A stretch of 64,000 nt of DNA from Eubacteriales bacterium. GTDB lineage: Bacteria; Bacillota; Clostridia; Oscillospirales; CAG-272. The stretch covers positions 43,846 through 107,845 of the forward strand of contig JAZRUG010000032.1 of NCBI GenBank assembly GCA_045652425.1, written 5' to 3'. The position numbers and the translations under genes are program-made. Below the pieces are notes generated by a model. It was not told where the DNA came from. It ran no database searches and saw only the letters and a program-made list of their open reading frames with translations. Positions 1,641 through 60,635 of the stretch are shown in pieces; position 1 is the stretch's first letter; each line of letters starts with the position of its first letter.

Positions 1641-1644
1641 AAAT

Positions 1645-1915
1645 CCAAGATAGAGGTGCGGTTTCAATGAATAAACATGTGGAGGCTCCGCTTGCCGATT
1701 AAACATGTCCAAAGGTGAACCCGCCGAAGTTTATCACACGTTAGCGGTTGGTGTGATAGGCTGGGCCGTCACTTAACAAGTGCCGGACTGTCATCAGTGT
1801 TTGCTGATGGAGGGCTATCATGTATATACTATTCTTTGTAGCGCACGTTTTGTTGCACATTGTTTATATTATATTACATGGTAAGCTGGTTTTCAACCGG
1901 TTTTTTTATTTTTTT
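1645..1915 (+). promoter_or_regulatory. Lysine riboswitch (L-box) with terminator-type expression platform
   Basis: AGATAGAGGTGCGGTTTCAATGAATA ... CCCGCCGAAG ... GGGCCGTCACTTAACAAGTGCCGGACTGTCATCAG ... GATGGAGGGCTATC closely parallels the B. subtilis lysC L-box core blocks (GATAGAGGTGCG, GCCGAAG, GGCTGTCA). A small hairpin plus a U-run (GCTGGTTTTCAACCGGTTTTTTT, about 1884-1908) precedes the dapA RBS. Confidence 0.85.
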
Positions 1916-2852: not shown

Positions 2853-3617
2853 ATGATAAATATACTTCTTACAGGTTGCAACGGCAGAATGGGCAATGCA
2901 GTTGCCGCATCTTGTGATGCAAATGAAAATTGTAATATAATAGCCGGTGTTGATGTTATGGGCGGAAAGAATACGTCTGACTTCCCTGTTTTTGTTTCTT
3001 TAAATGATTTTACAGGTAAAGCTGACGTTATAATTGACTTCTCTCACCATACGGCTACAGAAGGTCTGCTTAATTATGCCAAAACAAAAAACATACCGGT
3101 AGTATTAGCTACAACAGGACATACTCTCGAAGAAACCGAAATGATTAAAGAAGCATCAAAAGCAATTCCCGTATTCTATTCAAGAAATATGTCCCTTGGA
3201 ATCAATCTTCTTATTGCACTTGCTAAAAAAGCATGTTTGTCACTTGGCGAAGCGTTCGATATTGAAATAATAGAAAAACACCACAATCAAAAGCTTGACG
3301 CTCCCAGCGGAACTGCTCTTATGATTGCAGATGCTTTAAAAGAAACAAGAGAATGCGAAACTGAATACATCTATAACAGACAGCCACTTCACCAGAAAAG
3401 ACAGTCTACCGAAATCGGCATACACGCTGTCAGAGGAGGCACTATCGTTGGTGAACACGAGGTAATGTTTGCAGGAAAAGATGAGGTTATCACGCTTTCC
3501 CATTCGGCTTCTTCAAGAAACGTATTTGCCGAAGGCGCAGTAAGAGCCGCTCTTTTCCTGGCAGATAAGCCAAGCGGTCTATACGATATGAACGATATTG
3601 TAAATTCAATAATATAA
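2853..3617 (+). CDS. dapB: 4-hydroxy-tetrahydrodipicolinate reductase (DapB)
   Basis: 254 aa with an N-terminal GCNGRMG dinucleotide fold, EKHHNQKLDAPSGTA (the DapB signature E-x-HH-x-K-x-DAPSGTA) and HAVRGG. Follows dapA by 31 nt. Confidence 0.93.
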   Translation: MINILLTGCNGRMGNAVAASCDANENCNIIAGVDVMGGKNTSDFPVFVSLNDFTGKADVIIDFSHHTATEGLLNYAKTKNIPVVLATTGHTLEETEMIKEASKAIPVFYSRNMSLGINLLIALAKKACLSLGEAFDIEIIEKHHNQKLDAPSGTALMIADALKETRECETEYIYNRQPLHQKRQSTEIGIHAVRGGTIVGEHEVMFAGKDEVITLSHSASSRNVFAEGAVRAALFLADKPSGLYDMNDIVNSII

Positions 3618-3627
3618 CAACTAAAAC

Positions 3628-3659
3628 AAAAAAAGCACACGAAACCGTGTGCTTTTTTC
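3628..3659. terminator. Bidirectional rho-independent terminator between the convergent dapB and cohesin genes
   Basis: A-run, GCACACG / CGTGTGC 7-bp stem with a 4-nt loop, then a T-run. Usable on both strands. Confidence 0.8.
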
Positions 3660-3664
3660 TATGT

Positions 3665-5182
3665 TTAATTTTCAAGTACATACTCTATTATTAACGAAGA
3701 ATCGTTAAAAGTGATATCCCCTGATTCGTCAATATCTATAGCTTTCAAAATAGATTCGGTAACTTCAAGAGCCTCTCCCGATGCTATCTTATGCGCGATA
3801 TTGGCTTCAAAGACTGTAATCACTCCATCGCCGTCAATATCCTCGGGTTCAACAGGCGGTTCTTCTATAACACCTGTTAACGTTATATACTCAAGTTCCA
3901 CCTTTTTATAATTTACATCATACACATTAGTGCCTTCAATAGAAACAATATAACTTTCATTCGAACCTTTGAGAATTTCCCATTCTATACAAATAAGTTC
4001 AATATCAGTTTCTGAATAACCGTTTTCATTTACGTAAGGAAACTCGATTGAGCCATCACCAAACCCATCGTCGACAATCAACGTACCGCCTATTGAAGCA
4101 ATATCTTTTCCTACTGATACGGATACACACCTCAAAACTTCGGGATCGTAGTTAATTTTAAAATCTCCCGCCGCAACCCCTGCGCCTTTTTCGAGTTTCA
4201 AAACACTGGTTGCAGTTTTTCCTCTGTAGAACACGTCGCTCGATTCAAGCCAAATATTCGAATTATCCACAGTTTCGGGAAGTTTTTTTAAAGTAACACT
4301 ACTTGTAGACGAATATGGTAAATACTGCGTCAAATCTTCTGTATAAATATTTCTCGATTCATAAGAAAGCTTCGTACTTCCGTTTATATCTGCAATAACC
4401 TTCAAATTAATTTTTATCATATAAAATGAATTTACAGCAGTAGAATTGGCATAAGAAACAAGAACAGTTCCCTTTATATCCTTATTAATCGAATAAGTTG
4501 CGGTTTCTTTTTTCAGTCCGCTCTCAAGTTCGACAGATTCAACCTCAAAAATCTCACTGTCATAGTTCAGAACAAAATCACCGCTGCCAAAATAGTATCC
4601 GTTGGAATTAGCCAACCTCACAGATACAACGTCGCCACAACTTGCTGATGTTTTTGATAAATAGGAATAAACGCTAAACGTCTTTTGTGTTGCGGAGACC
4701 TCGGTAACGCTGATTGAAGCTCCTGTACCTCTTGCCGTAACCCCTGCAAAATCAAGTCCATAGCAATCTCCAACAGACATTCTAAGGTCATAAGAGCCGG
4801 CCACACATTCAGAATTAACATTAAATACAATATTTAACAATGTTCCGCTTGTACTGAAACCATCAGGATTAACCAAACTCACGTTAATAACACCACTGTT
4901 ATCTGTATTCACAGAGCTTATAGAATTCTGTGTAATCATACCTCCATTTGAGGTGGATTTAACAGACATAGCAGCAGAATCGTAGTAGACGTTAAAATCA
5001 ACTGCGCTTACCGTTTCGAAATTCGACGCCTTGATACTCAGGGTAAAATTATTACCCTGAGTAACCGAAGAAAGCGACGTTTGTGCCGTCAGTGTTGGAG
5101 GATTTTCAGCATAAACCGTTATTGAAACAGATGCAAAAACCACCGCTACTGCTATAAGGCATAATATAATTCTTTTTTTCAT
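3665..5182 (-). CDS. Secreted scaffoldin-like adaptor: signal peptide, three cohesin-like modules, C-terminal dockerin
   Basis: 505 aa. Sec signal MKKRIILCLIAVAVVFASVSITVYA. Three ~130-aa modules each carry the cohesin-type core (VSAVDFNVYYDSAAMSV; GSGDFVLNYDSEIFEV; AAGDFKINYDPEVLRC). The C-terminus has a duplicated Ca-loop, DIDGDGVITVFE ... DIDESGDITFND. RBS AGGGAG. Starts 29 nt after the protease gene stop. Confidence 0.8.
   Translation of the reverse strand: MKKRIILCLIAVAVVFASVSITVYAENPPTLTAQTSLSSVTQGNNFTLSIKASNFETVSAVDFNVYYDSAAMSVKSTSNGGMITQNSISSVNTDNSGVINVSLVNPDGFSTSGTLLNIVFNVNSECVAGSYDLRMSVGDCYGLDFAGVTARGTGASISVTEVSATQKTFSVYSYLSKTSASCGDVVSVRLANSNGYYFGSGDFVLNYDSEIFEVESVELESGLKKETATYSINKDIKGTVLVSYANSTAVNSFYMIKINLKVIADINGSTKLSYESRNIYTEDLTQYLPYSSTSSVTLKKLPETVDNSNIWLESSDVFYRGKTATSVLKLEKGAGVAAGDFKINYDPEVLRCVSVSVGKDIASIGGTLIVDDGFGDGSIEFPYVNENGYSETDIELICIEWEILKGSNESYIVSIEGTNVYDVNYKKVELEYITLTGVIEEPPVEPEDIDGDGVITVFEANIAHKIASGEALEVTESILKAIDIDESGDITFNDSSLIIEYVLEN
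3668..3844 (-). other. Dockerin module of the adaptor (aa ~447-505)
   Basis: Two EF-hand-like Ca-binding repeats, each followed by a helix: DIDGDGVITVFEANIAHKIA and DIDESGDITFNDSSLIIEYV. Confidence 0.75.
3869..4267 (-). other. Cohesin-like module 3 (aa ~306-438)
   Basis: ...TATSVLKLEKGAGVAAGDFKINYDPEVLRCVSV...IELICIEWEILKGSNESYIV... Boundaries are approximate. Confidence 0.65.
4289..4687 (-). other. Cohesin-like module 2 (aa ~166-298)
   Basis: ...GDVVSVRLANSNGYYFGSGDFVLNYDSEIFEVESVE...FYMIKINLKVIADINGSTKL... Boundaries are approximate. Confidence 0.65.
4703..5095 (-). other. Cohesin-like module 1 (aa ~30-160)
   Basis: ...GNNFTLSIKASNFETVSAVDFNVYYDSAAMSV...GTLLNIVFNVNSECVAGSYDLRM... beta-sandwich-type pattern typical of cohesins. 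Boundaries are approximate. Confidence 0.65.
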
Positions 5183-5211
5183 ATATCTTGCAAACTCCCT
5201 TGTATCTTTTA

Positions 5212-8200
5212 CTATGCTGTCATATCAAGAGAGCCAACCTTACCTGTAACGTAATGAAGTATTCTAAGAGCTTCAACAGCGGAAAGCTGTTCGTCACTAT
5301 TAAGGTCTGCGCGTTTGAATTCATCTTCTGTCATATTGTACTTATGGCTTATTGCCAAAAGAAGAATCAAAGCGTCCTTGTTTGTAACAGTACCGTCACC
5401 GTCAACGTCTCCGAGAGAATTCTTATCTATAGATTCTTTAACAGTTACGGCATAAGGTTCACTTGCAGAGCCTCTGTAGGTATAACTTACACCGTCAAAT
5501 GCTTCAATATAGTATTCCAAACCTTCAAGCTCAAGACTTGATGCAGGAATAATTGCAGAATACTTGTCATTAAGATTGTTCATACGAACTGTCTTCCACT
5601 CGGTCTGACCTTTTGTACGGAAATACAGATTAGCATAAGAAATAGTCAAGTTGTCCGTAACGTCGGCAGAAATAATGAGATTCTGTCCCATCGTAGCTGA
5701 ATATACGGGGCTGTGATAAATATTCGGCGCCATTGTATCCTTTGACATAATGGTTATCTTACCGGAAGGTGTAGACTCGGTGAGGTCAGTCTTAACAACT
5801 GTAAAGTTGTAGTAGTAAACAACGCCGGGTTCAACGGTATCATCAAAGAATTCCATCGTATCGAAAGGTATTACAGTCTTGTTGACTCTTTGATACAAGC
5901 CATTCAAAGAGGTTGAACGATATACGTTGTAACCCATAAGGGTATCAAAGTCGTCTTGTGTCCAACGGAGATTGATTCCGGTATCGGTAGCCTCGCCCTG
6001 CATGATAAGCGCCTGCGCTGCTGTGGTATCAATTACAAAAGCAAAACGAGCATTGTCGGGCTGAAGTGTCAAATCTTCCGTTGCAGAACAACCGTTGCTT
6101 ATTGCAACAAACTGATTACCGTTTTCGATTACAGTGGTAAGTGTGTACTTACCTTCCCAAGTACGAGCATCAACGTAGCTTCCCTCTACAGTGTAATCTG
6201 CATAAGGATAAGCACTTCCGAAAGTAAATCTCAAAGGAATTGAAGTATCCATATCTCTGTTGAACGTTACGCGGAATGTAACCTCTTCATTTCCAACAGT
6301 TGTAACAACTTCGCCTGTTTTGTTTATAAGGGATACAGAAGTAACGAACGGGAATGTGTTTTCGGGCGCTTCTGTGAGATAGGGAGCGTACATAAGACGA
6401 TTATAAGTGATAAAGTCAGAATAGTCGACCATCTGCAACTCAATAGCTCTTTCGTTAGTTGTTCCCCAATAGTTTTCGGCCAAAGGAATCTCCGAATAAG
6501 CTCCCGCAGTAACCGTAGGCGCAATAGGTCTCAACCAATGTGTAACATCGGTGTCTGTAGAAATGGGATTGAGTATTGCATTACCATAAAAATTTGGGTT
6601 GATCTGCAATTCCGCAAGAAGCGATTGCAACTTTGCAACAAAACTTTCAGCAGTATAAATACGTTCAATTGTTGTATCCAGAACAGAATCATGAATAACA
6701 GGTTCTTTTTCTTCGGTTTCAATCTCTGTATCTTCTTCTATTTCTGTGTCAGTTTCGGGAGCTTTATATGTAAACGTAATTGTAATATCCTCGGCATTGG
6801 TTACACCCTCTGCACCAGCAAGATCTCCTGCAGAGAACAAAAGAGTATATTCTACGCCTTCTTCAAAAATAGCTGAAGATAATATAACATCATTCACATT
6901 TTCAATCCTAGGAATTGCAACCACCTGTTCATCCCGAGCATATAATACCAAACTAACATTTTTAAGAGCTTTATTAAATGTCAGTACCAAATTCTCGTCT
7001 GATAAAACCAAATATTCAGATAAATTTGTAGCAGTTAAAGTAAGGTTTTCTACTAGAAGTGGTTTTAAATGTACTACATAAGGTGTTTCTCCATCATTAA
7101 AACATAATAAAGCTTCCGGTGTGACAACATAATGCATTCCATCGTATGCAAATACATCTATGGCATTCGTTATTCCTGGGACTTTTGTGATTGAATCCGA
7201 ACCACTTTTGAAAGTATAAACCCCGCCATTTAGAACCCCTATAGCAGTAGAGTCTGATTTGTATACTTTAAAAGAATCAAATTGTTCTGCAGGACTCTTA
7301 CGAACTGTTACACCCGATGAGGATATACTACACCATTCTCCGTCCGTATTTCTTGCATAACAAGTACTTAAAGAGCCTATATTCCCTGCATATAACTCAA
7401 CTATATTTTCAGCAATTTTTGTCGGATATAAGCGAGTTGAATCAGCACAGTATACATTTCCATTTTCTGTGTGGAAATAAGTAATATTATAACCGCACAC
7501 AATATCAATCACTTTTTCCGGCAACTGAACCAATTCAGCGGTTGATTTAACAGCATCTGATGAACCAACACCAAGAATATTACCGTTTTCACCTTTCGCA
7601 TATACTTTTCCATCTTCGGTAATAACGAAATATGTATAAAAACTAAAAGTATATGTTGATATTTTATAGCACGCAACGGATTTAATATTTAAGCCTTCGA
7701 ATCCACTTATCGATTTACTTGAACCATCAGTTCTATAGACATATTCAACAGAACCATCTTTCTTCAAAAGCATTGGATATTCGGGAGAACAATAAGAAAT
7801 AGAAAAATCATCAACATTAGAAACAGTCCAATTTACAGATTCACTACGACAGTATAACTCTCCGTTCTCCAAAAGTATCATTGTAATTCCCTCTCGGTAC
7901 GTTTCGGAGTAGCGAATATCAATCTTCTTTATAGGAGAATAATCATTATCACTAACATTTATCAAACAAGTAGCAACTAATCCACTACGTTCATCTTTTA
8001 CAACTAAAGTAGAGGTACCGGCAGTTTTAGGAATCAATTTATCATCATCAATAACCACAACATTTGAATCGGTCAATCGCCAATTTAGTTCGGGTTCTGC
8101 GCCCTCGTTTGTTATAATCATAGGAAATTCGACTGCGGATTCAGAAAGAGCGATTTTCATCACTGTTTTATCAAATTCCAAACTTACAGCCTTCACATAA

Positions 8201-11200
8201 ACAGTAATTTCAACACTTGCCGTAAATTCTTCACACGTTGCGGTAATTGTAGTAGTACCTGAACTTACGCCATAAATTACACCTACAGCATCTACAGTAG
8301 CAACGTTTTCATTTGATGAAGAATATTTCACGTTTCTTCTTGTTGTGTTTTCGGGTGTAAAGGTTACTTTTGTAGATAAAGTTTCGCCTGCTGCCAAGAG
8401 TGAGTTTTCTTCTTTTAACTGAAGCTCAATATTCTCAAGAGGAACGTATTCAATTACTTCAAAAGAAATATAATTGGAAACAGCTCTGTCTTTTGAGTAT
8501 ACATATACATCTGCATTTCCAACTCCAACAGGGGTAACAAGACCGTTTTCGTCAACAGTGATTACGTTTTCGTCGTTACTCTCGTATACAAATCTGTCTA
8601 AACCAAGTTGAACAGGTTTATTTGTAGGAGTAATCTGATAAGTCATTTCGGTATCCATCGATACTTCGTATTCGGTAAAGGTAATTTCCGTTGGAAGAAT
8701 ATCACCGGGGATTTCATAGAGATAATAACTCCAAGAGTCATCATTAATTTTCATCAAATAGGATAAAAAACAATAATTACTGCAATATTTTTGGGTTACA
8801 CCATTTGGATCTAAAAAGTCAGCTATTTCAGTTCCGTCATACCAAACAGCCTTATTTTTTAATGCATCATACTTGATACCAACCGTAAAACCTGAAAACT
8901 CAGAAAAATTCATTTTAATCCATTCTGCTTCTTCTTGAGATTCAATGATAACAAATGATCCTCCAAGTTGTTCAAGGTAATATTGGTTAATAGCACCATT
9001 TGATACTATATATGTTGTACCTGTTTCTTCGCGATATGAAATTTTGTTTATATAACTATACAAACTCACACTCGGTACTGTATACGTAAAATTAATACTT
9101 CTATCCGGACTTGTTTGATCTACAAATAAATTTTTCAAAAACACACAGTTTTGTGCCTTTAATTTAGAAGACAAAGTGATAATCTGTCCCTCTAAACCAC
9201 ACTCAACAAATATACATCTATCAGCATTTCCACTAATGTACACCTGACTATACGCACCAATTTTGTAGAAGACACTATCATTTACGTTGTTAAAGCTAGC
9301 TAAATAAGGATTACTGGTAAAAGCATAACCTACTTTTCCAGAATAAACGTGACGATAATACATATTGTTGCCATAATTGAACCTAAAGGTACAATGGTCG
9401 GCATGTCCAATTATATTATATAAACCTGTATTACCTGAACTGCCGGTAGCTAGATTGGTTATATCAGCGTATTTGAGAGAAATATAACCATTTGAACTTT
9501 GAGTAAGTTCAACGTTATACTTATCCATGAGCTGACTCGGGTAAATATAGACAGGATTCTCTTTCGTTCCCTCTACCAAGAATTTACCGTTTACAAGCAA
9601 GTATGCAATATAGTCGCTTGCATAGGGGTCGTTCGCATCATCTGACCAGAACTGAATATGTGTACCGGATTCAACGCGAACGGTTACCCCCTCGTTGATT
9701 ACTGTCGAATTTGGGATAATATAGAGGTTATCGGCTGTGAGAACCATATCCTCGTCAATAACGCTCGGCAAAATCTTTCCGCTTCTTACTGTGAGATTGA
9801 TTTTTGATTCAGAAGTATATACAGTTTCATCAGCTTCATCAAGAGCATTCTTGCACGTGATGGTTACGTAGATAGTAAATCTGTAGTCATTGGGACAGTC
9901 TTTTGCTATGCGAACGTAAAAAGGATTTTCCCAACCTGTAAGAAGTTCGTCTGTATATATTTTTCCGCAATCCTGAGTTGAATAAGTTCCTACAGAGCCA
10001 TAGTTCACAGTAGGATTGATGAATGTAATATAGGGGTCAGCAACGCCGTTGTTGTTTGCATTTATCGATACTACAGTATCTTCACTCATTCCCCAACGGT
10101 TACGAAGTGTAAGTCCGAGAGCAACTGTTTCACCAGCATCAATGACACCATCACCATTATTCACCTTGTCTTTGTCATTTTTGAATCCTTCGGTATCAAA
10201 AGCAGCAAAATCCTGAACTGACACTTCGGGTTTCGGAAGTTTTGTCAATGCAGCATCAAGATTTACAATTTGAGGAAGATTGTGGGGCATTCCATTTACA
10301 GTATGCTCCTTGGGGTTGATACAAGTAGCGTGATAATCGGAGGTACATGCAAGCTGACCGTAAATAAACTTGGTAGGATACATATCACGGTCCTTAAATT
10401 CACTTCTTAAAATAGCCGCAATAGCAGAAACGGTAGGCGCCGCCATAGACGTACCGCTGAGTATACCATATTGGTTGTTGGGTAACGTACTCATTATAGC
10501 TTCACCTGGGGCATAAAGCTCATATTCAACACCGTTGAACGCTTTTGCATCCCAGTTCGAGAATGAGGATTCAACACCGTTTTCGTCAACACTCATTACA
10601 CCGAGAACGTATGTAAGTCCTGCAGGATAATTAGGAAGCGGATTCAGATAATTATCTGTTTCTTCATTAGGCATACCACTGTTACCCGCAGAGGCTACAA
10701 GTACGCATCTGCTGTATGCAACAGCGAGCGCATCTTGTACTGCAATAGAACAAGCTGTACCGCCGAATGACATATTAATTATTTCAGCGCCGTTTTCATA
10801 AGCGTAAAGAACAGCTTTCGCTATTGTCGCCTGATTAAGCGTACCGTTTGCTGCTGCCGCTTTGATGGGCATTATCTTTACGTTGGAAGCAATACCCACA
10901 ACACCCACGTTGTTGTTCTGCGCGGCAATAACACCAGCAACGTGCGTTCCGTGTCCGTTGTCATCGTCGCCGTTGCCCTTGCCTGCTACAAGGTTTACAC
11001 CGTAGTAGTCGTCAATGTAGCCGTTATTGTCGTCATCTTTGCCGTTTCCGGCAATTTCTTTAGTGTTTACCCAAATGTTTTCGGAAAGATCCTCGTGGTC
11101 ATAGTCAACACCGGTATCAATAACAGCTACGATTACAGACGAGCTTCCCCCAACCTCTTCAACCTTATCCAAGCCGTCGGTTACGCCGCAGTGGTGCATG

Positions 11201-12141
11201 TGCCACTGCTTGTTGTGATATGGGTTTTTGTGATGTCCCCATTTTTCAAAACATTCTTTGCAAATATCTATATTCGCTGTTTCAATTTCGAAATTGTATT
11301 CAACAAGTTTTACTTCATCAAGCAAACGGAGTCCGTCTATAGTAGTTGCAACGTCTGTTCCCTCTACAAGCTTTGCTTCGTACCAAGTCTGTTTTTCCAT
11401 GGGTACAACGGGTGTGAGAAGTGCCACGCCGTACTTCTTCATACCCTCGGTTATTTTTCCCTCAAGGGTGTTGTTAAGTTTGATAAGTACACTTTCGTCA
11501 CTATACTTGACAGTTCCGTTTTCAACAAGCTCGGGATATACTTCGTCAAAAGGCTTCGTCATTGCACCGTTTTCGTCATACGTACCGTCATTATCTTTGA
11601 CTGTCTCCGAAGTATCGGCTACAAGAGGCGCTTTGTTTGTGCCTAAATTAACAATACCCGAATCGTTGTTTGCATTTGTTGAGGTCTTGTTGTTATCCAA
11701 TCCTTGAATAAGCTCTTCAACATAGTCGTTGATTTCTTCGTCGGTCATATTTTCGGTGTTTTCACCGTTACCGAGAACTTCAACAACTTTTTCAAACTCT
11801 TCTCTGCTTCCTAATGCAGATTCATTCTTTTCGTTTGTTACGGTCTTATTGTTATCCAATCCTTGAATAAGCTCTTCAACATAGTCGTTGATTTCTTCGT
11901 CGGTCATATTTTCGGTGTTTTCACCGTTGCCGAGAACTTCAACAACTTTTTCAAGCTCTTCTCTGCTTCCTAATGCAGATTCTTCAAACTTTTGGAGTGT
12001 GTTTGCATTACCATTTTCCTTGGGCAATACTTTTACCGTGTCCGAAGTCGGAACTTTCGCGCATCCGACAACACCTAAAAGCATTATTGCCGCAAGAAGA
12101 AATGCTAACGTTCTTCTTGGGAATAAATGCATTTTTTTCAT
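5212..12141 (-). CDS. Giant (2309 aa) lipoprotein-type subtilisin-family (S8) serine protease with multiple Ig-like, lectin-like, propeller-like and FN3 modules and a C-terminal dockerin
   Basis: One uninterrupted ORF. Lipobox LGVVGC (Cys27). Catalytic triad motifs VAVIDTGVD (Asp342), HGTHVAG (His397) and GTSMAAP (Ser565), plus the oxyanion ASAGNSG. The C-terminus is DVDGDGTVTNKD...DLNSDEQLSAVE. RBS GGAGGA before the ATG. Confidence 0.9.
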   Translation of the reverse strand: MKKMHLFPRRTLAFLLAAIMLLGVVGCAKVPTSDTVKVLPKENGNANTLQKFEESALGSREELEKVVEVLGNGENTENMTDEEINDYVEELIQGLDNNKTVTNEKNESALGSREEFEKVVEVLGNGENTENMTDEEINDYVEELIQGLDNNKTSTNANNDSGIVNLGTNKAPLVADTSETVKDNDGTYDENGAMTKPFDEVYPELVENGTVKYSDESVLIKLNNTLEGKITEGMKKYGVALLTPVVPMEKQTWYEAKLVEGTDVATTIDGLRLLDEVKLVEYNFEIETANIDICKECFEKWGHHKNPYHNKQWHMHHCGVTDGLDKVEEVGGSSSVIVAVIDTGVDYDHEDLSENIWVNTKEIAGNGKDDDNNGYIDDYYGVNLVAGKGNGDDDNGHGTHVAGVIAAQNNNVGVVGIASNVKIMPIKAAAANGTLNQATIAKAVLYAYENGAEIINMSFGGTACSIAVQDALAVAYSRCVLVASAGNSGMPNEETDNYLNPLPNYPAGLTYVLGVMSVDENGVESSFSNWDAKAFNGVEYELYAPGEAIMSTLPNNQYGILSGTSMAAPTVSAIAAILRSEFKDRDMYPTKFIYGQLACTSDYHATCINPKEHTVNGMPHNLPQIVNLDAALTKLPKPEVSVQDFAAFDTEGFKNDKDKVNNGDGVIDAGETVALGLTLRNRWGMSEDTVVSINANNNGVADPYITFINPTVNYGSVGTYSTQDCGKIYTDELLTGWENPFYVRIAKDCPNDYRFTIYVTITCKNALDEADETVYTSESKINLTVRSGKILPSVIDEDMVLTADNLYIIPNSTVINEGVTVRVESGTHIQFWSDDANDPYASDYIAYLLVNGKFLVEGTKENPVYIYPSQLMDKYNVELTQSSNGYISLKYADITNLATGSSGNTGLYNIIGHADHCTFRFNYGNNMYYRHVYSGKVGYAFTSNPYLASFNNVNDSVFYKIGAYSQVYISGNADRCIFVECGLEGQIITLSSKLKAQNCVFLKNLFVDQTSPDRSINFTYTVPSVSLYSYINKISYREETGTTYIVSNGAINQYYLEQLGGSFVIIESQEEAEWIKMNFSEFSGFTVGIKYDALKNKAVWYDGTEIADFLDPNGVTQKYCSNYCFLSYLMKINDDSWSYYLYEIPGDILPTEITFTEYEVSMDTEMTYQITPTNKPVQLGLDRFVYESNDENVITVDENGLVTPVGVGNADVYVYSKDRAVSNYISFEVIEYVPLENIELQLKEENSLLAAGETLSTKVTFTPENTTRRNVKYSSSNENVATVDAVGVIYGVSSGTTTITATCEEFTASVEITVYVKAVSLEFDKTVMKIALSESAVEFPMIITNEGAEPELNWRLTDSNVVVIDDDKLIPKTAGTSTLVVKDERSGLVATCLINVSDNDYSPIKKIDIRYSETYREGITMILLENGELYCRSESVNWTVSNVDDFSISYCSPEYPMLLKKDGSVEYVYRTDGSSKSISGFEGLNIKSVACYKISTYTFSFYTYFVITEDGKVYAKGENGNILGVGSSDAVKSTAELVQLPEKVIDIVCGYNITYFHTENGNVYCADSTRLYPTKIAENIVELYAGNIGSLSTCYARNTDGEWCSISSSGVTVRKSPAEQFDSFKVYKSDSTAIGVLNGGVYTFKSGSDSITKVPGITNAIDVFAYDGMHYVVTPEALLCFNDGETPYVVHLKPLLVENLTLTATNLSEYLVLSDENLVLTFNKALKNVSLVLYARDEQVVAIPRIENVNDVILSSAIFEEGVEYTLLFSAGDLAGAEGVTNAEDITITFTYKAPETDTEIEEDTEIETEEKEPVIHDSVLDTTIERIYTAESFVAKLQSLLAELQINPNFYGNAILNPISTDTDVTHWLRPIAPTVTAGAYSEIPLAENYWGTTNERAIELQMVDYSDFITYNRLMYAPYLTEAPENTFPFVTSVSLINKTGEVVTTVGNEEVTFRVTFNRDMDTSIPLRFTFGSAYPYADYTVEGSYVDARTWEGKYTLTTVIENGNQFVAISNGCSATEDLTLQPDNARFAFVIDTTAAQALIMQGEATDTGINLRWTQDDFDTLMGYNVYRSTSLNGLYQRVNKTVIPFDTMEFFDDTVEPGVVYYYNFTVVKTDLTESTPSGKITIMSKDTMAPNIYHSPVYSATMGQNLIISADVTDNLTISYANLYFRTKGQTEWKTVRMNNLNDKYSAIIPASSLELEGLEYYIEAFDGVSYTYRGSASEPYAVTVKESIDKNSLGDVDGDGTVTNKDALILLLAISHKYNMTEDEFKRADLNSDEQLSAVEALRILHYVTGKVGSLDMTA
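5227..5415 (-). other. Dockerin module of the protease (aa ~2243-2305)
   Basis: GDVDGDGTVTNKDALILLLAI ... ADLNSDEQLSAVEALRILHYV has two Ca-loop + helix repeats. Residues at the putative recognition positions differ from those of the adaptor dockerin. Confidence 0.8.
5767..6006 (-). other. Fibronectin type III-like domain, aa ~2046-2125
   Basis: INLRWTQDDFDTLMGYNVYRSTSLNGLYQRVNKTVIP...TVEPGVVYYYNFTVV shows the classic FN3 W ... Y-x-V-Y-R ... Y-Y-Y pattern. Confidence 0.7.
7057..7944 (-). other. Degenerate RCC1-like / beta-propeller repeat region, aa ~1400-1695, tentative
   Basis: Recurrent ~50-aa units carry the pattern (E/D)(D/N)G-x-(V/L)Y, e.g. EDGKVYAKGENGNILGVGSS, TENGNVYCADS, LENGELYCRSE and NGGVYTFKSGS. 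Confidence 0.45.
7951..8694 (-). other. Three tandem bacterial Ig-like (Big_2-type) domains, aa ~1150-1397
   Basis: Repeated ~80-aa units contain ...ENVITVDENGLVTPVGVGNADVYVYS..., ...ENVATVDAVGVIYGVSSGTTTITATC... and ...VVVIDDDKLIPKTAGTSTLVVKD..., which are typical Big_2 signatures. Confidence 0.75.
8707..9024 (-). other. C-type-lectin-like module (aa ~1040-1145), tentative
   Basis: The pattern LGGSFVIIESQEEAEWIKMNF ... FTVGIKYD ... AVWYDGTEIADF ... YCFLSY ... NDDSW resembles the CTLD layout (GG-x-L-x-x-I-x-S-x-EE-x-x-F; WIGL; W-x-W-x-DG; W-x-D). The canonical cysteines are not all present. Confidence 0.4.
10222..11154 (-). other. Peptidase S8 (subtilisin) catalytic domain, aa ~330-640
   Basis: The Asp342 codon is at 11116-11118, His397 at 10951-10953 and Ser565 at 10447-10449. 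All sit in canonical subtilase motif contexts. It is preceded (aa ~205-290) by a propeptide/I9-like segment. Confidence 0.9.
11665..11982. repeat. Tandem 159-bp (53-aa) direct duplication inside the protease gene
   Basis: 11683-11823 and 11842-11982 align with a 159-bp period and only 3 mismatches by eye. They encode ESALGSREE(L/F)EKVVEVLGNGENTENMTDEEINDYVEELIQGLDNNKT twice (aa 54-106 and 107-159). Confidence 0.95.
12061..12141 (-). other. Lipoprotein signal peptide (SPase II lipobox, Cys27)
   Basis: MKKMHLFPRRTLAFLLAAIMLLGVVG-C has a positive n-region, a hydrophobic core and V-V-G-C matching the [LVI][ASTVI][GAS]C lipobox. Confidence 0.8.
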
Positions 12142-12228
12142 GACATATCCTCCATTGCACTATGTACAAATCTATTTATTGGGTTATTTGTATAAAAACA
12201 CAAAAAAGTAAATATTTATACAGTTTAT

Positions 12229-12257
12229 ATTCTATTACTTTTCGAGAGGAATGTCAA
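12229..12257 (-). promoter_or_regulatory. Sigma-A type promoter of the protease/cohesin operon
   Basis: On the minus strand: TTGACA (12257-12252), 17-nt spacer, TAGAAT (12234-12229), about 90 nt upstream of the ATG at 12141. Confidence 0.6.
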
Positions 12258-12289
12258 TTGATATTGTTCACAAAAAAATATGCTTATAC

Positions 12290-13591
12290 TTATATAACTT
12301 TCCTTATGTTATACTTCGCGTTAAGCACGAGCCAGTTTTGCGGGAACCATTCCATCAAATTCCAATACCCTACGCCGTATAAATTGTATTCGGGTACGAG
12401 CTTTAATTTTTCGTCGATACTCCTTGCGTCATCAAACCATACTACATGTTCCGTTCCATTTTCCGTATAGTTGAAAAAAGGTGTCTGCGCCACTTCGTCA
12501 AAGTTTATACTTACACCTTTTTCTATTGCTAAATCAACCGCTTCAACGTTGGATATTTTTTGAGCTTTCGTTGTTCCCATCTGATAAGGTAAAGGCCAGT
12601 CATACGCGTAATTTGGCACTCCTAAAAATATCTTTTCGGGGTTTATTACACCAACACCGTAGTTCAGCACCCTCTCTACTTCATTTAAGGGAGCTACTGC
12701 CATTGGAGGTCCAAATGTATATCCCCATTCGTACGTCATAAGCAAAACATAATCGCTTACCGCGCCTATACCGCCGTAATCGTGCGACTCATATAATCCA
12801 CCGGGTTGATCCCCCGACGCTTTCGGTATAAGCGCGGTAATCAATATATATCCGTTTTCATTTAATGCAATCCCGAGACGTCTTACGAAATCTGTATATT
12901 TATCTCTGTTTGCACCGTCAAGATACTCAAAATCCACGTCAAAACCGTAATAATTCTTCTCGTTCATTCTTGTAATTATGTTTTGAATAAGCACATCTTG
13001 CGCCTGTCGGTTGTTTAGAAATGCGTTACCAAGCTCACTACTGAAAACTCCTGCTTCGGTTAAGGTTGATAGGTGCATTATCGGAGCTACACCGTATTCT
13101 CGCGCGAGTGATATTATCTCGTCTTCGTCAAGTCCGAAATCGGTTATTCCTCTATCCACAAGCTGTCCATCGGGGGTGAATCCGTATGTGAATAGTGTTA
13201 TGTATGTCAAATACGGCAGGGTTCTTATAAGCGTATCTCGTTCAACAAATGGATATATATATCCGTTTACAGCTATTTCTCCTTGTTTCTCGGTCGTATA
13301 ATCTATTATTATCGTTTGCCCTGCGAATATTTCGTCTCTTCCTTTAAGTATAGGGTTATTGCGGAGAAGCTGATTCACAGATACTCCGTAACTGTTCGCA
13401 ATCCCTTCAAGTGTATCTCCCAGCTGTACTGTATAAACTTGTTCGGGATACAAAATAACTATAGTCTGACCAACAGTTATTTTTCCCTCTTCGTTAAGCT
13501 CATTTTGCGATATAAGTCTCGACAACGGTACACCGTATTCTCGGGCTATAGAATCAAGAGTATCCCCCGGCTGAACAACATAAATTATCAT
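12290..13591 (-). CDS. LysM-LysM-GH18 spore cortex hydrolase-like protein (YaaH/SleL family)
   Basis: Two LysM repeats (YVVQPGDTLDSIAREYGVPLSRLISQN; YTVQLGDTLEGIANSYGVSVNQLLRNN) are followed by a GH18-type TIM barrel (GFDVDFEYL catalytic-region motif). The start is set at ATG 13591 behind the RBS GGGGAG. The track's longer N-terminus would overlap the ahcY terminator. Confidence 0.8.
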   Translation of the reverse strand: MIIYVVQPGDTLDSIAREYGVPLSRLISQNELNEEGKITVGQTIVILYPEQVYTVQLGDTLEGIANSYGVSVNQLLRNNPILKGRDEIFAGQTIIIDYTTEKQGEIAVNGYIYPFVERDTLIRTLPYLTYITLFTYGFTPDGQLVDRGITDFGLDEDEIISLAREYGVAPIMHLSTLTEAGVFSSELGNAFLNNRQAQDVLIQNIITRMNEKNYYGFDVDFEYLDGANRDKYTDFVRRLGIALNENGYILITALIPKASGDQPGGLYESHDYGGIGAVSDYVLLMTYEWGYTFGPPMAVAPLNEVERVLNYGVGVINPEKIFLGVPNYAYDWPLPYQMGTTKAQKISNVEAVDLAIEKGVSINFDEVAQTPFFNYTENGTEHVVWFDDARSIDEKLKLVPEYNLYGVGYWNLMEWFPQNWLVLNAKYNIRKVI

Positions 13592-13639
13592 ATTAATCTC
13601 CCCTAAAGCAAAAATATATACTATTATCTTATTCGACGA

Positions 13640-13680
13640 AAAAATAAAGGTGCAGTCCATAATAAGCGAACTGCACCTAT
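13640..13680 (-). terminator. Rho-independent terminator of ahcY
   Basis: Minus strand: AGGTGCAGT / ACTGCACCT 9-bp stem followed by TTATTTTTT. Confidence 0.75.
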
Positions 13681-13691
13681 GCAATATATTT

Positions 13692-57565: not shown

Positions 57566-58267
57566 TTAAAATATTTTTTGATATTTTTTCATATCACTTT
57601 CTTTCGGAAGCGGAATTTCTGCGAAAGGAAAGTTAATATTCAACATATCATATTTGGTTATACAAATATTTTTGAATGGTAAAAGCTCAACTTTTTCAAC
57701 AACGCTATATTTATCGGCAATTTCTTTCAGCTTTACAAAATTTTCTTCGTAATCGTTAACCGTCGGAATAACCACCTGACGCAATATAGTTTTTATATTC
57801 ATCTCTTGAAGAGTATCAAGAAATTTCAAAACTTTATCCATATCACAGCCGACGTGCTTCTTATAAAGCTCGTTTTCGGTATATTTAATATCAAGCAAAA
57901 CTATATCTGTTTCTTGCAATAGTTTGATAACACTATCGTTAAGTATACTTCCCGATGTATCAAGACAGGTGTTTATACCTTCCAAATGGCAAAGTCTAAA
58001 CGTCTCATTTACAAAATCCGGTTGAAGCAAAGGCTCACCGCCCGAAAATGTTATCCCGCCTTCGTTCCCAAAGTATTCTTTGTATCTCTTTGCGCGATTT
58101 ACTATTTCTTCGGGTGAATATTCTTTCCCCTCGTTACAATTCCATGTATCCGGGTTATGACAGCACGAACATCGCAAATTACACCCTTGGGTAAACACAA
58201 CGAAACGAACTCCCGGACCGTCTAGGGTTCCGAGAGTTTGTATCGAATGAACATATCCTTTTATCAT
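57566..58267 (-). CDS. pflA: Pyruvate formate-lyase activating enzyme (radical SAM)
   Basis: 233 aa: [26 protein letters not shown] (CxxxCxxC cluster)...[15 protein letters not shown] overlap with the pflB stop. Confidence 0.92.
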
Positions 58268-60495
58268 AAAGCTTCGTGGAAGGTACGGCTGATAACTTCT
58301 TTCTGCTGTTCGCGAGAGAGCTTATTAAAGTTTACAGCGTATCCCGATACTCTTATTGTAAGATTTGGGTAACTTTCGGGATCTTCGTACGCCTTCATCA
58401 ACGTTTCTCTATTCAAAACGTTTATGTTAATGTGGTGCGCCTTCTTTGCAAAATATCCGTCAAGAATAGAAACAAGATTGTCAATTCTTTCATCTTCGGT
58501 TCTGCCGAGGGCTTGAGGTGTAATCGAGAAAGTATTAGAAATACCGTCGCGGCAATCGTCATAAGAAAGCTTTGCTACAGAGTTAAGACTTGCCAAAGCC
58601 CCGTTCTCTTCTCTGTTGTGCATGGGGTTAGCGCCGGGGGCAAAAGGCATACCTGCCCCTCTTCCGTCGGGAGTAGCGCCCGTATTCTTACCGTACATTA
58701 CGTTTGACGTAATTGTAAGAACAGATAGTGTGTGAATTGCGTTTCTGTACGTAGGTGTCTTACGAAGCTCTGTAATAACCTTGTGAGTCATTTCTTTTGC
58801 TATATCGTCAACTCTATCGTCATCGTTACCATACTTGGGGAACTCTCCCTTTGTATCAAATCCAACAACAAATCCTGCTTCATTAGTTATAGGTTTAACG
58901 TTTGCATATTTTATAGCACTCAAAGAGTCTGCAACAACGGACAAACCTGCGATACCAAACGCCATAAAACGTTCAACAGAAGTATCATGCAACGCCATTT
59001 GCGTCTTTTCATAAGCATATTTATCGTGCATATAGTGAATAACGTTCATAGTCTTAACGTAAAGCTCACTCAACCACTTGATATAAACATCATAACGCTC
59101 CATAACAGCATTATAATCCAACTTATCAACAGTCATAGCTTCCATTTGAGGACCGATATGCATATCGCTGTCTGCATCGTATCCACCGTTTATTGCAATA
59201 AGCAAAAGTTTTGCAAGGTTGCAACGAGCACCAAAGAACTGCATCTGCTTACCCACTCTCATTGCAGATACGCAACAAGCTATCGCATAGTCGTCGCCAT
59301 ATATAGGACGCATAACGTCATCATTCTCATACTGAATAGAGTCTGTATCTGCAGAAACCTTCGCACAGAATTTCTTAAAATTGTTCGGCAACTGATTCGA
59401 CCACAGAACAGTAAGATTAGGTTCGGGTGAAGAACCCAAAGTATAAAGTGTATTCAAAACACGGAAGCTGTTTTTTGTAACTAACGTTCTGCCGTCTTCG
59501 CCCATACCGCCTACCGCTTCGGTTATCCACATCGGATCTCCGCCGAAGAGTTCGTTATATTCAGGGGTACGAAGATGACGAGCCATACGAAGTTTCATTA
59601 CAAAATCGTCAATAAGCTCCTGTGCGCCCGTTTCATCAAGAATTCCGTTTTCAATATCTCTTTCAATATATATATCAAAGAATGTGCTTACACGGCCCAA
59701 GGACATCGCAGCACCGTTTTGCTCCTTAATTGCACCGAGATATGCAAAGTAAGTCCACTGTATAGCTTCTCTGGCATTACTTGCAGGTTGGCTGATATCA
59801 AAACCGTACATTTCAGCCATTTCTTTTAAGTATCCCAAGAAAGCAATCTGCTGATACAATTCCTCTGTGAGTTTAATGTTGTCCGCATTTAATACATCAC
59901 CGGCAAGAGCCCTTTTGTCTTTCTTCTTTTCCTCAATAAGCTTGTCTATACCGTACAAGGCAACACGTCTGTAATCACCTATAATTCTCCCTCTGCCATA
60001 CGCATCGGGAAGACCTGTGATAACGTGACATTTACGCGCGTCTCTCATCTCATCGGTATAAGCTCTGTATACGCCCTCATTGTGAGTAGTTCTGAATTTG
60101 AATTCTTCCTGAACTTTAGAGCTAAGCTTGTAACCGTAAGCTTCACAAGCCTGCTTAACCATTCTCATTCCGCCAAATGGATTAACGCCACGCTTTAACG
60201 GTCTGTTTGTCTGAAGTCCAACTATTATCTCATTATCTTTATCAAGATAACCGGGGGCAAATGCCGTTAAAGTTGAAACCGTCGATGTATCAATATCAAG
60301 AACTCCGCCAAACTGTCTTTCAATTGCAAAAAGAGCCTGAAGCTTCTTCATCAAAGCACTGGTTCTCTCGGTAGCTCCCGCTAAAAACGAGTAGTCACCC
60401 GTATATTCTTTATAGTTTGACTGTATAAAATCGCGAACGTCTATATTATCTTTCCAAAACGTTCCTTTAAACCCTGCCCAATTGTTGTGTTCCAT
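58264..60495 (-). CDS. pflB: Pyruvate formate-lyase (formate C-acetyltransferase)
   Basis: 743 aa from ATG 60495 (RBS AGGAGG). Active-site ACCVSAM and the C-terminal glycyl-radical motif [11 protein letters not shown]. Confidence 0.95.
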
Positions 60496-60509
60496 ATTTT
60501 TACCTCCTA

Positions 60510-60635
60510 AAAAACCAAAAAAAGGCAAATCAGCTTTTTTTACAAAACTGACTTGCCCAGACGGTCGGCGTTATTAACTTTTACATTCCACCGCAGTTAT
60601 TCTGCGTTTTTCCGTCAGTTATGTAAAAGCTGTAT
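60510..60635 (-). promoter_or_regulatory. ZTP riboswitch (pfl motif) with intrinsic-terminator expression platform
   Basis: Minus-strand leader: CUUUUACAU-AACUGACGG-AAAAA-CGCAG-AAUAA-CUGCG-GUGGA-AUGUAAAAG ... GCCGACCGUCUGGGCA. The P1 arms (CUUUUACAU / AUGUAAAAG), the P2 hairpin, the GACGG/CCGUC pseudoknot and the GCCGACCGUCUGGGC 3' subdomain match the ZTP consensus. As I recall it, they also match the Fusobacterium ulcerans ZTP RNA. A terminator follows: GGCAAGUCAG...CUGAUUUGCC + U7 (60517-60557), whose 5' arm overlaps the aptamer's 3' end. Confidence 0.88.

Follow-up and report, generated by a model that had tools for sequence, protein, structure and literature searches.

Cohesin–dockerin assembly is usually treated as a device for degrading carbohydrates. 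Gut Clostridia have turned it to substrates other than cellulose, in the mucinolysome of Limousia (PMC12997984) and the amylosome of Ruminococcus bromii (PMC4611034), and proteases too are found among its passengers. A dockerin-bearing peptidase of Ruminococcus flavefaciens FD-1 binds the cohesin of ScaE, the cell-anchoring protein, in enzyme-linked immunosorbent assays (PMC5301203; PMC3573020). Clostridium thermocellum has an S8 protease with a tandem double dockerin, dDoc_0689 (8X39/8X3A; Chen et al. 2024), which, in the account relayed by PMC12484212, prefers the cohesin of cell-bound ScaD, a preference read there as surface anchoring. Limousia encodes three to six dockerin-bearing peptidases per genome (PMC12997984), scaffoldins that themselves carry an S8 domain have been described in Acetivibrio cellulolyticus (ScaO), A. 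mesophilus and C. alkalicellulosi (ScaO2) (PMC3413522, PMC11557425), and Clostridium perfringens forms cohesin–dockerin complexes of toxins and glycosidases, as summarized in PMC12997984. The subject of this article is a stretch of 64,000 nucleotides (the window) from contig JAZRUG010000032.1 of an uncultured Eubacteriales bacterium, GCA_045652425.1, in which the same assembly principle appears to be hard-wired to one giant protease.

Two genes make up the system. One encodes an S8 serine protease of 2309 residues that ends in a dockerin; the other, immediately downstream, encodes a 505-residue scaffoldin with three cohesins. We read the pair as a cassette that displays a giant protease of subtilisin type on the cell, the scaffoldin probably holding the enzyme at the surface. 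Among the enzymes encoded in the window, cassette included, the S8 protease alone carries a dockerin: no dockerin-bearing carbohydrate-active enzyme (CAZyme) was found within the 64 kb, nor any cohesin or dockerin besides those of the cassette. Cellulosomes, amylosomes and mucinolysomes are recognized by cargo dominated by CAZymes, and within the window the cassette lies outside that definition. An earlier note on this DNA, made from its letters alone, had likewise remarked on the lack of CAZyme cargo in the operon. It had also described the cargo of such systems as normally CAZymes, which understates the dockerin-bearing peptidases that dock on surface cohesins (PMC5301203; PMC12484212).

Linkage, constant dockerin and variable anchors

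More than 120 full-length orthologues of the protease can be recognized, at 41–56% identity and almost all with a dockerin. The earlier note had named a lack of linkage between the two genes in related genomes as a refutation; linkage is what we find. A triple-cohesin gene directly follows the protease gene at 11 of 11 orthologue loci examined (the window, L001, L003, L004, L005 (Faecousia metagenome-assembled genomes, MAGs), L007, L009, L011/L012 (Hadza gut), L013, L014 and L015). An alignment-based scan of genome contigs yielded three loci, in two Faecousia MAGs and one Oscillospiraceae MAG. The genes that flank the pair are unrelated from one orthologue locus to the next, which marks protease and scaffoldin genes as a unit that moves together. 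L013 (3141-19580; GCA_964599835.1, CAZRHF010000005.1) is a variation on the theme: tandem paralogous proteases of 2259 and 2207 residues, both with a dockerin, stand before one triple-cohesin gene, and just upstream lies a glycoside hydrolase family 3 (GH3) enzyme with a dockerin of another sequence type.

Metagenomes extend the picture. They were scanned with a profile of the conserved C terminus of the protease (cohesin patterns used as the query gave no matches), and 77 loci came back, many of them on contigs labeled human gut metagenome. Seventy-four are informative, in that they retain at least 600 nt downstream of the protease, and in 70 of these a triple-cohesin gene begins 10–130 nt after the protease stop codon. 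Clustered at 80% identity, the scaffoldins from these 70 loci fall into 17 groups. An exhaustive HMMER search with the triple-cohesin profile gave 320 cluster representatives at E <= 1e-30. The best 150 of the 320 (50%-identity clusters) match the profile end to end at their N termini, in proteins of 500–3152 residues.

What stays the same and what changes within this family is the core of our argument. A dockerin is detected in 119 of 120 protease orthologues and is nearly constant. The two halves of its consensus, LGDVNGDGVITNLDALLLLYAINDKYNLTAEEFARADLNGDGELWAAEALRILQYVSG, are unlike each other. Three orthologues, L027, L083 and L085 (JGI Ga0074195_1000144, Ga0172382_10002624 and Ga0265295_1001338), have a variant dockerin (…LEAWEALKILMYVSG…) and no downstream cohesin gene. 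In those lineages the scaffoldin, if one exists, would be encoded elsewhere. On the scaffoldin side, the triple-cohesin head is constant across the family and the tail, which ranges from 0 to 2700 residues, is anything but. Depending on lineage it carries a dockerin, three SLH repeats (P0006, L009), CW_binding_2 repeats (L014), a C-terminal hydrophobic or transmembrane segment, or no detectable anchor. Those scaffoldins that end in a dockerin have extremely diverse ones, often internally symmetric, unlike the near-constant dockerin of the protease. Between head and anchor most scaffoldin orthologues also carry long Cys-rich repeat arrays (…APTCTE.G…C..C.…LGH…) of up to about 30 copies. The scaffoldin of the window lacks these repeats and is among the shortest members of its family.

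The cassettes of SLH and CW_binding_2 type are the simplest to interpret. They contain exactly one dockerin, that of the protease, and one cohesin set, that of the wall-anchored scaffoldin, and so protease to scaffoldin is the only pairing possible within them. A constant dockerin, a constant cohesin head and a variable anchor form the pattern expected of a cognate pair. This is the strongest evidence that the two proteins would bind each other, evidence of a genetic rather than a physical kind. It also lends indirect support to the further tier of attachment that the earlier note had proposed for the scaffoldin, since in orthologues an SLH, CW_binding_2 or hydrophobic segment, each a type of anchor to the cell envelope, occupies the position of the dockerin.

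The two proteins and their locus

The features of the locus are collected in Table 1. The two minus-strand open reading frames (ORFs) and their spacing are exactly as the earlier note gave them, its S8 protease with a C-terminal dockerin and its three cohesins were borne out by Pfam, the small protein does begin with a Sec signal, and all four of the loop motifs it quoted are present. It had missed the lipoprotein signal and the predicted prodomain of the protease, both of which change the mechanistic picture.

From N to C terminus, the protease consists of the lipoprotein signal, a repeat linker, the prodomain, the S8 domain, beta-sandwiches, a beta-helix, a lectin-like module, Big_2 and RCC1-like regions, a conserved C-terminal block and the dockerin. 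Its signal peptide ends in the lipobox pattern [LVI][ASTVI][GAS]-C, which predicts a lipoprotein tethered by its N terminus, and a lipobox (as L-x-[GAS]-C) stands at the same place in 96 of 120 orthologues. The acidic linker between lipobox and prodomain houses a tandem duplication. The second copy of its repeat (residues 51–100) is missing from 95% of aligned orthologues, and the duplication is therefore recent and lineage-specific. Next comes a prodomain-like fold, visible in the AlphaFold2 model and joined to the S8 domain by a linker (residues ~288–330) that is modeled at low confidence or as disordered. Foldseek aligned the model to the pro-forms of subtilases, across prodomain and catalytic domain together: pro-subtilisin E (3WHI), ProN-Tk-SP (3AFG) and fervidolysin (1R6V), as well as SUB1 and EpiP (8POL and 3T41 being the further entries matched). 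These alignments are longer than a catalytic domain (433 columns for 3WHI, 612 for 3AFG), which supports a prodomain of subtilase type.

The active site is intact. All 46 of the orthologues aligned retain Asp342, His400 and Ser565 as well as the oxyanion residue Asn487, a pattern that points to an active enzyme and not a pseudo-protease. Among solved structures the closest catalytic sequence is that of deseasin MCP-01 (3VV3, E 4.8e-47), with Plasmodium SUB1 and subtilisin Carlsberg also matched, and Foldseek gives a template-modeling (TM) score of about 0.8 against subtilisins. Beyond the catalytic domain, residues 585–900 are highly conserved and residues 900–1150 variable across orthologues; the names beta-sandwich, beta-helix and lectin-like for the folds of this region are our reading of the strand pattern in the model, not the product of a fold search. 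The middle of the protein (residues ~1173–1750) is likewise variable and poorly conserved, with Pfam matches to Big_2 (63.6 bits), HL_N-beta, RCC1_2 (33.1 bits) and WD40_RLD. Conservation then returns: the C-terminal block of some 400 residues is among the most conserved stretches of the protease, comparable to the S8 region, and in Pfam it matches only the GlgE N/S domain, weakly. Taken together, this long accessory region probably serves as spacer and substrate-recognition region.

The dockerin that closes the protease scores 27.2 bits against Pfam Dockerin_1 in the context of the whole protein and 36 bits alone (cut-off 22.9). Its best match among solved sequences is the serine-protease double dockerin 8X39 (E 8e-7), followed by the type I XynY dockerins 2CCL and 1OHZ.

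The scaffoldin is modeled with high confidence. Built from a family alignment of 92 sequences, its AlphaFold2 model has a mean predicted local distance difference test score (pLDDT) of 93.9 and a predicted TM score (pTM) of 0.64, and shows three all-beta modules with a module of three helices after them. Scanned one by one, each module of ~135 residues exceeds the Pfam Cohesin threshold (PF00963, 24.1 bits), and the whole protein scores 86.4 bits over three stretches; a failure of the cohesin models to hit the three modules was another outcome that the earlier note would have taken as a refutation. The modules have the nine-stranded beta jelly-roll fold of cohesins and, taken singly, can be laid over solved cohesins of type I (6KGC_A, TM 0.83 and root-mean-square deviation 1.8 Å; 2XDH, 0.82; 4UMS, 0.77), and the cohesin dyad 3L8Q is a further match. 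The third cohesin has the most columns conserved at >=80% across the family (14 columns). The linkers between modules are short and modeled at high pLDDT, which, with the pTM, suggests that the three cohesins form one rigid unit. Such rigid packing makes the number of proteases per scaffoldin a real question.

The earlier note had assigned the scaffoldin a second, different dockerin. Both DxDxxG Ca2+-loop motifs are indeed there, and in the model the helices (residues 457–467, 476–482 and 492–502, with none before the first loop) have a dockerin-like topology. Its family assignment is borderline: the Pfam score lies just under the cut-off, and by sequence EF-hand proteins match the module about as well as the solved dockerin 4UYP_B does. 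We call it a divergent dockerin, with that reservation.

The layout of the locus is that of an operon. A GGAGGA ribosome-binding site precedes the protease ATG at 12141, and no terminator-like hairpin was found in the 29-nt spacer between the two genes. The earlier note had placed the pair between one promoter and one terminator. The promoter candidate matches the consensus at 11 of 12 positions and is the best-scoring site within 3000-13000; promoter-like sites as a class show no enrichment (28 in the region against 30.2 in shuffled sequence), and this particular promoter is for that reason plausible but unproven. The terminator, a 14-bp hairpin, is shared with dapB, which converges on it from the other side.

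The neighbors are housekeeping genes: queA, dapA-dapB, a LysM-GH18 gene, and those for S-adenosylhomocysteine hydrolase, pgk and tpi. The convergent pair dapA (1820-2821) and dapB (2853-3617) is controlled by a lysine riboswitch directly upstream (Rfam RF00168, 114 bits; 1643-1825, plus strand). A ZMP/ZTP riboswitch (RF01750, 59.4 bits) lies at 60548-60632 on the minus strand, upstream of an ORF of 754 residues (58264-60528). Immediately upstream of the cassette and on the same strand is a gene for two LysM domains and a GH18 domain (12290-13684, minus strand). We rejected it as a member of the operon: the candidate promoter lies in between, and its product has no dockerin. That product probably hydrolyzes peptidoglycan or spore cortex and has nothing to do with the cassette. 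A mobile or phage origin of the cassette was rejected as well, given its unremarkable base composition and housekeeping neighbors.

Table 1. Features of the protease–scaffoldin cassette and, in the last row, Cys-rich arrays of related loci (positions in their own loci)
Feature	Position	Strand	Remarks
Bidirectional intrinsic terminator	3628..3659	.	14-bp stem, T-runs on both sides; common to cassette and convergent dapB
Scaffoldin/adaptor gene, 505 aa	3665..5182	-	Sec signal, three cohesins, short Pro/Glu linker, divergent dockerin
Scaffoldin C-terminal dockerin-like module, residues 447-503	3674..3844	-	Loops DIDGDGVITVFE and DIDESGDITFND
Cohesin 3, residues ~305-440	3863..4270	-	Pfam 31.9 bits alone; pLDDT 94-98
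Cohesin 2, residues ~166-300	4283..4687	-	Pfam 34.6 bits alone; pLDDT 98
Cohesin 1, residues ~27-160	4703..5104	-	Pfam 47.3 bits alone; nine-strand beta module, pLDDT 96-98
Sec (type I) signal peptide of scaffoldin, residues 1-25	5108..5182	-	Ends …TVYA before EN; no lipobox; helix 2-18 in model
Intergenic spacer, 29 nt	5183..5211	-	AAGGGAG ribosome-binding site; no terminator
Giant S8 protease gene, 2309 aa	5212..12141	-	Module order in text
Protease dockerin, residues 2243-2298	5248..5415	-	Ca loops DVDGDGTVTNKD and DLNSDEQLSAVE at residues 2245 and 2279
Conserved C-terminal block, residues ~1850-2240	5422..6594	-	64-85% identity to orthologues
Big_2/Ig-like modules and RCC1-like propeller region, residues ~1173-1750	6892..8625	-	Pfam
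Beta-sandwich pair, beta-helix, alpha/beta lectin-like module, residues ~640-1150	8692..10224	-	AlphaFold2 pLDDT 80-97; boundaries approximate
Peptidase S8 catalytic domain, residues 334-584	10390..11142	-	Pfam E 2.8e-47
Subtilase-type prodomain (predicted), residues ~212-287	11281..11508	-	AlphaFold2 beta-alpha-beta-beta-alpha-beta element, pLDDT 82-90
159-bp tandem duplication, 1.9 copies, 96% identical	11675..11982	-	Encodes 53-aa acidic repeat (ESALGSREE…NNKT)
Signal peptide and lipobox, residues 1-27	12061..12141	-	MKKMHLFPRRTLAFLLAAIMLLGVVG followed by C27; V-V-G-C, Cys27
Candidate sigma-70 promoter	12229..12257	-	TTGACA-17-TAGAAT, 11/12 matches; ~85 nt upstream of protease start codon
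Cys-rich scaffoldin arrays	L003 2109-4469; L007 17015-19687; L009 6950-10522; L015 13102-16494		Cys-rich CxxC repeats

Proposed mechanism and rival explanations

How might such a cassette work? The protease and scaffoldin genes would be transcribed together. The protease would cross the membrane as a lipoprotein zymogen and stay attached to it through its lipid-modified Cys27. The prodomain would aid folding. Subtilase prodomains are removed by autoprocessing; here, self-cleavage within the flexible linker that precedes the S8 domain would free a mature enzyme of ~2000 residues from its lipid anchor. If the prodomain is removed in this way the lipid anchor goes with it, and the C-terminal dockerin would become the enzyme's sole means of staying on the cell. 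The combination of lipobox, prodomain and dockerin thus suggests a hand-over mechanism by which a self-processing enzyme is retained, with the dockerin docking, in the presence of Ca2+, on at least one of the three cohesins of the scaffoldin. The scaffoldin would be the adaptable half of the partnership, its rigid and constant head receiving the enzyme and its tail setting the location of the complex. Because the tail in the window is a divergent dockerin, its expected partner is an anchor protein with a cohesin, encoded beyond the window. As for the substrate, our guess, and the most likely case, is that the displayed enzyme degrades extracellular gut protein or glycoprotein, for nutrition or for surface remodeling.

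Several observations sit uneasily with this reading and have to be counted against it. A recognized lipobox is missing from 24 of 120 orthologues, and the lipid-anchor step is therefore not universal. The prodomain region has no match to Pfam Inhibitor_I9. In the AlphaFold2 model the S8 core (residues ~335–590) has a pLDDT of only about 60 and falls below 50 in several segments, in contrast to the confidently modeled prodomain and beta-rich domains on either side of it; lineage-specific insertions, or a shallow alignment of close relatives, may be the cause. The dockerin-like module of the scaffoldin scores 22.6 bits when scanned alone and 18.1 as part of the full protein, both under the Dockerin_1 cut-off of 22.9, and no partner cohesin for it is visible within the 64-kb window. 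The linkage figures also need to be read with care. Forty-five of the 70 positive metagenome loci belong to one near-identical cluster, a single human-gut lineage, which leaves about 17 independent cases in addition to the orthologue loci listed above. At four of the 74 informative loci there is no adjacent cohesin gene (three keep the dockerin, and at the fourth the protease has none), and adjacency is therefore not obligatory.

Those three loci, which keep a protease dockerin with no cohesin gene beside it, are one reason to ask whether the two genes are merely co-regulated. The scaffoldin would then be a general adaptor, and the protease, docked elsewhere or nowhere, would mature, trim or recycle the proteins that the scaffoldin carries. 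Post-translational processing or turnover has been proposed for cellulosomal S8 proteases (PMC12484212), and other dockerin proteins do occur near the cassette in some relatives, such as the GH3 enzyme of L013. That GH3 dockerin, however, differs in sequence type from the dockerin of the protease, and the window holds no further dockerin or cohesin. A near-invariant dockerin and an invariant head, kept strictly adjacent in at least 17 lineages among unrelated neighbors, are what a cognate pair predicts, and we regard the non-cognate explanation as unlikely. It is also improbable, in our estimation, that the cassette belongs, as an accessory arm, to a larger CAZyme complex, be it a cellulosome, an amylosome or a mucinolysome, in which the protease would be one cargo of many and the dockerin of the adaptor would link it to a CAZyme-loaded primary scaffoldin. 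Dockerin-bearing peptidases are known from both cellulosomes and mucinolysomes, in the numbers given above for Limousia, and the terminal dockerin-like module of the window scaffoldin does need a partner elsewhere. Yet the scaffoldins of many relatives are anchored to the wall directly, through SLH or CW_binding_2 repeats and with no dockerin at all, which makes the cassette a self-sufficient unit. Nor does the 64-kb window offer a dockerin-bearing CAZyme, and in Limousia, judged by locus tags, the genes for dockerin-bearing peptidases never adjoin a scaffoldin gene.

The most skeptical explanation is that the cohesin-fold modules bind no dockerin whatsoever, and form a rigid beta-sandwich stalk or an adhesin, the so-called dockerins being Ca2+-binding modules that lend stability. 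Cohesin-like and dockerin-like modules do exist outside assembly systems, the scaffoldin dockerin resembles an EF-hand as much as a dockerin, and the single rigid unit with short linkers is a far cry from the flexible beads-on-a-string of classic scaffoldins. Against this, all three modules clear the curated Cohesin threshold and superpose on type I cohesins that function as such; the dockerin of the protease is an unambiguous Dockerin_1 whose closest solved relatives bind cohesins; and neighboring genes would hardly keep both module types together so strictly if the modules did not interact. We consider this explanation very unlikely.

The display cassette remains our preferred reading, and much would follow if its pairing is real. 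Many uncultured gut Clostridia have the cassette, and it would represent a new and easily recognized surface-protease system that could shape the turnover of gut protein, mucin or immunoglobulin, and would supply an annotation rule for two large unnamed families, the proteases with their 120-plus orthologues and the scaffoldins with their 320 cluster representatives. For those who engineer surface display, it would be a natural series in which a conserved cohesin–dockerin pair is combined with exchangeable wall anchors. A bolder version, in our view doubtful, is that of a "proteolysome" complete in itself. It would be a two-gene module, widespread among Oscillospiraceae-like Clostridia of the gut and not described before, in which a lipid-tethered zymogen is handed over to a rigid scaffold that accepts up to three proteases and has an interchangeable tail. 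Were that true, it would be the first cohesin–dockerin system with a protease as its dedicated cargo, and a major route of extracellular protein and glycoprotein foraging in the human gut.

Comparison with described systems

The earlier note had been unable to place a protease–scaffoldin operon in the literature, and we fared no differently. Full-text searches returned no description of a dedicated two-gene cassette that pairs a triple-cohesin scaffoldin with one giant protease, of the combination of lipoprotein signal, prodomain and dockerin, or of wall anchors that are swapped while the cohesin head stays constant. What the literature does offer is a set of systems that each resemble part of the cassette.

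The R. flavefaciens peptidase comes from the same broad lineage of gut Oscillospiraceae/Ruminococcaceae and, like the protease proposed here, is a dockerin-bearing peptidase that reaches the surface by way of a cohesin. It is, however, a papain-like cysteine peptidase, and its anchor is shared with the entire cellulosome. No dedicated pairing with a scaffoldin gene, no triple-cohesin adaptor and no lipoprotein signal are reported for it. In enzyme class the C. thermocellum protease is closer, being an S8 subtilase with a dockerin for a cell-bound scaffoldin, and its double dockerin is the best solved match to that of the window protease. As far as the available account of it goes, the C. thermocellum enzyme is much smaller, has two dockerins to our one, belongs to a cellulolytic host and uses a general cellulosome anchor, and that account mentions no dedicated scaffoldin gene next to it. 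ScaO-type proteins also bring an S8 domain together with a cohesin and a dockerin in a clostridial surface system. There, protease, cohesin and dockerin are parts of one polypeptide of a cellulosome producer; here they are divided between two genes, and the cohesins are three.

Outside the cohesin–dockerin world, similar in design are lactocepin PrtP (with its lipoprotein maturase PrtM) and the streptococcal C5a peptidase, S8 subtilases of ~2000 residues with a prodomain that reside on the Gram-positive surface and degrade extracellular protein. They are anchored by LPXTG and sortase, or by a wall-binding C terminus, and have a PA-domain insert. By analogy, the window protease probably works as these cell-envelope proteinases of lactic acid bacteria do. 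It differs from the lactocepin type in its N-terminal lipid, its C-terminal dockerin and its separate scaffoldin. We rejected its assignment to the lactocepin-type proteinases themselves, as it has neither a Pfam PA domain nor an LPXTG motif and scores 21 bits against NCBIfam NF040553, for which the cut-off is 1400. The mycosin, PatA and dentilisin families were rejected too, with NCBIfam scores far under their cut-offs.

The C. perfringens complexes share with the cassette the idea of a non-cellulosomal cohesin–dockerin assembly of secreted hydrolases that attack host material. In the summary of them that we draw on, they differ in that single cohesins and dockerins are built into the glycoside hydrolases, with neither a non-catalytic multi-cohesin scaffoldin nor a protease cargo described. 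The mucinolysome and the amylosome also resemble the cassette, as cohesin–dockerin complexes of gut Clostridia where multi-cohesin adaptors with a C-terminal dockerin plug into a wall-anchored cohesin and some of the cargo is peptidase. Those complexes, though, are defined by dockerin-bearing glycoside hydrolases, and their peptidases are a minor, unlinked cargo; the cassette of the window is a compact two-gene unit whose sole linked cargo is one giant protease. The docking of dockerin-bearing proteases on the cell surface is already known. In this cassette the assembly principle of the cellulosome appears to be dedicated to the display of a protease.

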